Assembly: GCF_988242995.1 (NCBI RefSeq)
Contig: NZ_OZ547043.1
DNA: 64,000 bases
Strand: one strand, 5' to 3'
Part shown: positions 50,393 through 50,523 of the stretch, piece by piece
How positions within the stretch are numbered: the first letter of the stretch is position 1
Layout of the letters: every line of letters begins with the position of its first letter
Position numbers and translations under genes: made by a program
The notes under the pieces: generated by a model
Database searches by the model: none
Seen by the model: the letters and a program-made list of their open reading frames with translations, nothing else
Told to the model about the DNA's origin: nothing

Positions 50393-50523
50393 TTTCAATA
50401 TTGGTGATCCATAAAGCAATATTGAAAATTTCTTTTTGCTACGCCATGTTTTCAATATTGGTGAGGGACTTAACAATATTGAAAGTTGGATTTATCTGCG
50501 TGTGACATTTTCAATATTGGTGA
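50393..50523. promoter_or_regulatory. Repeated inverted-repeat operator units in the divergent caiT/fixA control region (probable CaiF binding sites)
   Basis: TTTCAATATTG occurs at 50393, 50450 and 50509. The first two are each followed after exactly 13 bp by the inverted half-site CAATATTGAAA (50417-50427 and 50474-50484); the third has no partner. Confidence 0.6.

Follow-up and report, generated by a model that had tools for sequence, protein, structure and literature searches.

The cai-fix control region and its inverted repeats

The region between the divergent operons caiTABCDE and fixABCX of Escherichia coli contains three exact copies of the 15-nt sequence TTTCAATATTGGTGA. Two of them belong to inverted repeats, while the third stands without a right arm in the predicted core promoter of the fix operon. 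Which role does this third copy have? We addressed this question in a stretch of 64,000 nt of DNA, referred to here as the window. Within the window the divergent cai-fix control region of the E. coli chromosome extends from position 50143 to position 50614, between caiT (48628-50142, minus strand) and fixA (50615-51385, plus strand, ATG at 50615). Both are the first genes of their operons and were assigned by their open reading frames together with the RefSeq annotation of near-identical E. coli loci, in agreement with an earlier note on this DNA, which had taken the region for the cai/fix divergent control region. The gene for the specific activator CaiF (131 aa) is present as an open reading frame at 42489-42884 (plus strand). 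Its product matched the Pfam family PF07180 (CaiF_GrlA) with 28.5 bits at a cutoff of 25, and GrlA is its only relative with a solved structure (4KT5 chain C, E=0.001). To our knowledge, CaiF and the virulence regulator GrlA are the only proteins of the CaiF/GrlA family that have been studied biochemically.

The three copies of TTTCAATATTGGTGA are located at 50393-50407, 50450-50464, and 50509-50523. When up to two mismatches were allowed, seven matches were found in the 64-kb window as compared to 0.19 expected, a number that was equaled in 0 of 100 shuffles. The first two copies form the left sides of the inverted repeats F1 (50393-50427) and F2 (50450-50484), which both read exactly TTTCAATATTG-N13-CAATATTGAAA; for this arrangement 0.00 matches were expected even with three mismatches. 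The shuffles reproduced neither the TTTCAATATTGGTGA triplet nor the TTTCAATATTG-N13-CAATATTGAAA pair. The coordinates of the repeats and the geometry of 11-bp arms and 13-bp spacers, as given in the earlier note, were all exact. The half-sites had also been described as palindromic, and the core CAATATTG is indeed a perfect 8-bp palindrome. The orientation of an arm is therefore set by the flanks alone, with TT on the outside and GTGA on the inside, the latter in left arms only. Altogether there are five TTTCAATATTG units, each oriented opposite to the one before, with distances of 21, 36, 21, and 38 bp from core centre to core centre. Over 51 nt, the units of F1 and F2 are 73% identical. All 15 nt of the third copy agree with the left arms of F1 and F2, but it is not a site of the F type, as the best right arm at a spacing of 12-13 bp matches only 5-6 of 10 positions. 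All three copies of TTTCAATATTGGTGA are also found in K-12-type E. coli.

Two binding sites for the purified CaiF protein, F1 and F2, have been reported, and the reports describe the operator as two sites with 11-bp perfect inverted arms and 13 bp between them, 5'-TTTCAATATTG-N13-CAATATTGAAA-3' (PMC12083890, PMC3680233). F1 and F2 of the window are exact matches and equal this published operator, so the correspondence to the described CaiF operator geometry, as proposed earlier, holds. Sequence, geometry, and locus are identical to those of F1 and F2 in E. coli K-12 (Buchet et al. 1999, via PMC12083890, PMC3680233), and the same regulator gene is nearby. The window spacer differs from K-12 in being a minority E. 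coli allele, with the CaiF sites themselves unchanged. The F1/F2 inverted repeats are thus the published CaiF operator, and this main part of the finding is already known. Unlike the K-12 sites, the third copy lacks a right arm, and its place is within the predicted fix core promoter and not upstream of it. The accessible literature names two CaiF sites only and makes no mention of the third copy.

Conservation of the third copy among Enterobacterales

The comparison was based on 80 caiT loci of species-representative genomes, in which we mapped fixA and caiF and turned all spacers to the orientation of the window. The conservation of the third copy was judged in the 55 cai-fix spacers of caiF-bearing loci. 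For the calculation of information content, one sequence per genus was used (18 genera), and the sequences were anchored on the conserved part of the third copy. This part is the 14-nt box TTCAATATTGGTGA at 50510-50523 (plus strand), a CaiF-type box that makes up all but the first position of the exact copy at 50509-50523. The box reached 1.91 of 2 bits per column, as compared to 0.45 bits in the 40 nt upstream. The 5 nt following the box had 0.73 bits per column, the next 10 nt 1.73 bits, and the sequence further downstream 0.60 bits. These 10 nt, with the consensus GTtTTATTtt, constitute a second conserved element, which reads GTTTTATTTC in the window (50529-50538, plus strand). Judged by sequence comparison, the third copy is the most deeply conserved CaiF-type element among the 55 spacers.

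Not only the sequence of the box was conserved but also its position. The third copy is found at -104 to -108 from the fixA ATG in Escherichia, Salmonella, most Citrobacter, Phytobacter, Pseudocitrobacter, and Intestinirhabdus, and also in Pluralibacter, Yokenella, Trabulsiella, Atlantibacter, Proteus, and most Providencia. Outliers are C. sedlakii (-91) and P. heimbachae (-138). The distance between the box and the proximal inverted repeat is 59 bp (59-61), although the intervening 24 bp are unrelated across clades. Between F1 and F2 the distance is less constant (55-59 bp). Of 5387 E. coli genomes, 4877 have the same 50-bp sequence around the box. When one mismatch was allowed, just one chance match to the box, in a Shewanella, occurred elsewhere in the 1.6 Mb that the window and the loci comprise.

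The repeats were also present in other enterobacterial cai-fix spacers, on which the earlier note had made its reading depend. The number of inverted repeats varied. An equivalent of F2 is present in all loci of Enterobacteriaceae and Morganellaceae examined, and members of the E. coli clade have two repeats. RIT691, Pluralibacter, Yokenella, Atlantibacter, 'Enterobacteriaceae 89', and Trabulsiella have kept F2 and the box without F1; since six genera do without it, F1 is dispensable. In Proteus (L029-L036 and L047), three full CaiF-type inverted repeats precede the promoter box, with left arms at -282, -223, -164, and -105 in an exact 59-bp period. Hafnia, Edwardsiella, Serratia H1w, Leminorella, and Limnobaculum have no inverted repeat, only TTCAATATTGGTGATCYAGGTATTATTTT. 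The sequence TTCAATATTG has a single occurrence, which is the box, in the spacers of six genera that keep caiF. In Budvicia aquatica the box is tandemly duplicated together with a downstream GGTATT element; the two copies are 27 bp apart at about -338 and -311 from the fixA ATG. This duplication is a snapshot of how extra copies can arise. Entomohabitans was the only genus in which the core of the box was lost.

CAATATTG cores were present wherever caiF was present and absent in the loci of Shewanella and Ferrimonas, which have caiT and fixA without caiF. The residues Y11, V42, N43, T46, Y47, and R75 of CaiF form a group for which alanine substitution impaired the E. coli sensor, and they were modelled as DNA contacts (PMC12083890). 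In the CaiF orthologues of all box-bearing genera, Y11, N43, Y47, and R75 are invariant, and the changes V42I and T46S occur. As the contact residues are also kept in genera without inverted repeat, the same DNA specificity is expected there. In these genera the box is the only candidate CaiF operator in the spacer.

The earlier note had considered the third copy an auxiliary or low-affinity site. This view is not supported: the third copy is the most conserved CaiF-type element of the spacer and the sole one in six genera that keep caiF, and it belongs to the predicted core promoter of fix, with constant distances to both F2 and the fixA ATG.

The third copy and the fix promoter

The only promoter-like site on the plus strand of the spacer consists of the candidate -35 hexamer GTGACA (50502-50507) and, 17 bp further downstream, the candidate -10 hexamer TAAAGT (50525-50530). 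It matches 9 of 12 sigma-70 positions. Since chance alone would yield 2.6 such sites in this region, GTGACA-17-TAAAGT alone is weak evidence. GTGACW is present at the candidate -35 position in every member of the Escherichia/Salmonella/Citrobacter clade, and TAnnGT, which has the key T, A, and T, follows exactly 17 bp downstream of GTGACW in 10 of the 11 distinct sequences of the E. coli clade. No other clade has the TAnnGT candidate; hexamers similar to GTGACA or GTAACA at the -35 position also occur in Limnobaculum and Edwardsiella. Outside the E. coli clade, the second conserved element reads TATTAT or TATTTT and is likely to be the -10 hexamer there, which would place the box over the -35 position in these clades. 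In the E. coli clade, the best candidate for a fix promoter has its 17-bp spacer occupied by the box. We infer from these arrangements that the box is inside the predicted fix core promoter, at about -27 to -14 in E. coli and about -35 to -19 elsewhere. Cappable-seq data for aerobically grown K-12 contain no plus-strand transcriptional start between 35,192 and 46,052, and no aerobic start is expected at fix because the operon needs anaerobiosis and carnitine.

Other features around the fix promoter were also inspected. An extended -10 element TGnTA at position +43 from the box, which would have put the box and a degenerate arm near -41.5, was rejected because the T at -7 is missing in most sequences; TAACTT of Budvicia has this T. 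A block (C/G)RTGnTAYnT is found at this fixed distance of +43 in most families, and in several genera it takes the form TGTTAA-N5-TATTnn, which we take to resemble a direct repeat of the ArcA type. The folding of the fix leader RNA (50549-50614) was not unusual (z-score +0.77); the last ~27 nt of this leader before the fixA ATG are near-identical from Escherichia to Citrobacter. A search for known RNA families in the region returned nothing beyond sub-threshold matches to miRNA precursors, which are due to the palindromes.

We propose that the third copy is a CaiF-type box within the fix core promoter, on which one CaiF protomer docks and helps RNA polymerase from the -35/-10 interval. Based on the conservation and placement of the box, we give this reading a probability of roughly 0.6. 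Each F site consists of two arms of 10-11 bp, presumably with one winged-helix protomer per arm, and a single protomer would occupy TTCAATATTGGTGA. The central 13 bp of F2 also form a CRP-like site, and a strong CRP box at 50282-50297 would serve the cai promoter. CaiF together with CRP at F2, at the fixed distance of 59 bp upstream, and F1 would then provide cooperativity and the coupling to the cai promoter. By comparison among the genera, the box is the ancestral element in this reading, and the inverted repeats were added later. A more far-reaching version, which we put forward tentatively and at somewhat less than even odds, regards the third copy as the ancestral and principal CaiF operator from which one protomer activates in the -35/-10 interval. 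The inverted repeats would be later, lineage-specific additions, 0, 1, 2, or 3 by genus, that add CRP-linked cooperativity and couple cai. A lone half-site usually binds a protomer weakly, which counts against docking of CaiF at the box, as do the loss of the box core in Entomohabitans and the restriction to two CaiF sites in the accessible literature. Genome-wide CaiF binding data were not found in a limited literature search. The proposal of a box embedded in the promoter is a modest, testable refinement of the known operator.

Could the third copy be conserved only as core-promoter DNA that is read by RNA polymerase, comprising the -35 hexamer and the spacer, without being bound by CaiF? 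The left arms of F1 and F2 would then represent a duplicated promoter segment, at which the 73% identity between the F1 and F2 units hints. The location of the third copy between candidate -35 and -10 hexamers and the two CaiF sites reported in the accessible literature are in agreement with such an explanation. We nevertheless consider it unlikely. All 14 positions of the box are near-invariant across families, whereas spacer DNA is normally weakly constrained, and the constrained bases are exactly those of the footprinted arms. The candidate hexamers differ between clades but the box does not, and genera with caiF and kept contact residues offer no other candidate CaiF target in the spacer. 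Still less probable is a third complete site for a CaiF dimer, in which the third copy would serve as the strong left arm and either TTATTTCCAA, at a spacing of 12 bp, or TATTTCCAAA, at 13 bp, as a degenerate right arm that overlaps the -10 region; such a site would act in a class-II-like manner or else limit or repress transcription. The second conserved element, with its high information content at fixed spacing, would suit such an arm, and a spacing of 12 bp gives a match of 5-6/10 to CAATATTGAA in several genera. In AT-rich DNA, a match of this quality is close to what chance would give. The core G has not been conserved, and in most clades the element makes a good -10 hexamer (TATTAT/TATTTT). 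In addition, a protomer on the -10 would block transcription rather than activate it.

A CRP site was also considered, since TGTGACATTTTCAATA (50501-50516) overlaps the third copy with 3 mismatches to the CRP consensus and CRP is known to bind at several places in the spacer (PMC3105977). Only the left half matches, however. TGTGAC is mainly restricted to the E. coli clade and coincides there with the candidate -35 hexamer, and most other clades keep the box without TGTGAC (Limnobaculum and Edwardsiella have the GTGACA- or GTAACA-like hexamers). The 16 nt starting from GGTGA in the box have on average 4.04 mismatches, and we regard a CRP site at this position as very improbable. The spacings of 57 and 59 bp and the similarity of the F1 and F2 units could finally suggest that a unit of 57-59 bp was once triplicated in tandem and left the third copy behind as a neutral relic. 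This is hardly credible: the box is nearly perfectly conserved across families while the flanks and the F1-F2 interval diverge, and it is present in genera that have no repeat units. The information content of the box as compared to its upstream sequence (1.91 vs. 0.45 bits) effectively refutes a neutral relic.

Docking of CaiF within the core promoter would have a parallel in GrlA, another regulator of the PF07180 family, which is reported to bind the 18-bp -35/-10 spacer of the LEE1 P1 promoter in EHEC and EPEC (Islam et al. 2011, via PMC10877973). As described there, the GrlA target is single, asymmetric, and located in the -35/-10 interval, and a corresponding position is predicted for the third box in the E. 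coli clade. The LEE1 P1 sequence, which we took from an O157:H7 genome, has near-consensus hexamers and a suboptimal 18-bp spacer (TTGACA-TTTAATGATAATGTATTT-TACACA). The fix candidate does not show such a non-optimal spacer; its predicted length of 17 bp in E. coli counts against the docking of CaiF. We compared the GrlA target TTTAATGATAATGTATTT to the CaiF box and found nothing shared beyond AT-richness, and the recognition helices of GrlA and CaiF differ. The parallel to GrlA is therefore one of placement and not of sequence. Class II promoters of MarA, SoxS, and Rob are another case in which a monomeric activator uses one oriented box at or overlapping the -35. The third box shares with them one protomer, in the proposed reading, one box, and a fixed orientation to the promoter, which was seen in all loci. 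Differences are the AraC/XylS fold with two HTH per monomer and the 20-bp box of MarA/SoxS/Rob, and the paired inverted arms that CaiF also uses upstream.

The cai-fix region is used as a carnitine biosensor. If the box is a true CaiF target, a minimal CaiF-responsive promoter would have ~50 bp and not roughly 150 bp with F1 and F2, CaiF and GrlA would share an action from within the core promoter, and the present model, in which fix is activated from two sites, would have to be extended by a third contact. If the box is no such target, the finding is confined to the known operator.

CRP and FNR sites, the cai promoter, and variation among loci

We searched for CRP sites with the consensus TGTGA-N6-TCACA and for FNR sites with the consensus TTGAT-N4-ATCAA. 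The earlier note had suggested looking for sites of both regulators in 50143-50614; the search supported CRP, with one strong box and one CRP-like sequence in F2, and revealed no good site for FNR. The strong CRP box, TGTGATGTTAGTCACG (50282-50297, centre 50289.5), has 1 mismatch to the consensus. Its half-sites are kept in both E. coli alleles and its centre is variable. The CRP-like sequence GGTGAGGGACTTAACA (50460-50475, centre 50467.5) lies inside the F2 spacer and has mismatches at 2 of 10 positions. In the Escherichia/Salmonella/Citrobacter clade, GGTGA and TAACA of the F2 centre are kept and the N6 between them varies, a pattern suggestive of a genuine CRP site. The centre of F1, with 3-4 mismatches, resembles such a site less. 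Neither the F1 spacer of the window (4 mismatches) nor the region of the third box, with the average given above, qualified as a CRP site. The best FNR match in the cai-fix spacer had 2 mismatches (50363-50376), and with up to three mismatches 6 matches were observed as compared to 4.5 expected from shuffles. CRP was reported to bind at several places in the cai-fix spacer, and the two promoters are served by different CRP molecules (PMC3105977).

On the minus strand, CATTAT (50255-50260) is a candidate -10 hexamer for cai. The surrounding ATAATG(G/A)nTAYT was conserved from Escherichia to Proteus in left-anchored stacks. The strong CRP box is 41.5 bp from the start implied by this hexamer, from which we infer that cai may have a class-II-type CRP promoter, as in class II CRP-dependent promoters with CRP at -41.5. 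This likeness belongs to the cai side and not to the repeats and depends on a predicted start site. We take the published CRP sites to be at -41.5 for cai and at -69.5 and -126.5 for fix, and the start sites of cai and fix presumably are ~289 bp apart. These positions fit starts near 50248 and 50537 as well as the 57-bp spacing between F1 and F2. TTCAAT at 50264, considered as a mirror-image half-site for CaiF in the core promoter of cai, was dismissed: it is not conserved in Salmonella and Citrobacter and is found elsewhere in Edwardsiella.

Between the cai CRP box and F1, a patch of 98 bp (50271-50368) differs at 33 of 98 positions from K-12-type E. coli, as compared to 6 of 374 positions in the rest of the spacer. 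Of 5426 complete E. coli genomes, only 652 have the window-type patch. Between identical flanks, yet other versions occur in E. albertii, E. whittamii, and another Escherichia, a different one in each. The CRP half-sites and an ATCAAT motif survive in the patch. Replacement of alleles by recombination and a fast-evolving, unconstrained segment are both possible explanations.

The CaiF orthologues (45-98% identity) have kept, besides the HTH region, the motif GRGCQCQR, which is invariant except for one substitution in Budvicia, and the C-terminal (L)NxEQKWQxMLSK. Effector binding or dimerisation are possible functions of these motifs. Shewanella, Ferrimonas, Campylobacter, and others (L058-L083) have caiT homologues with 68-74% identity, mostly with a fixA homologue nearby, and lack both caiF and the CAATATTG box, so a different regulator must control these loci. 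In Yokenella regensburgei the spacer has only 324 bp, and its single inverted repeat starts 29 nt from the cai -10 candidate with no CRP box between them. At the cai promoter of this species, CRP seems to be replaced by the CaiF site. Leminorella, Limnobaculum, Edwardsiella, Hafnia, and Serratia H1w (L024, L045, L048-L055) have caiF beyond fixABCX and not beside caiE; their spacers are 650-770 bp long, and the box is 263-348 nt before fixA. In the cai promoter of the same genera, an FNR-type sequence, TTGATTAAGATCAC on the cai strand, is found at the very position at which E. coli has the CRP-type box.
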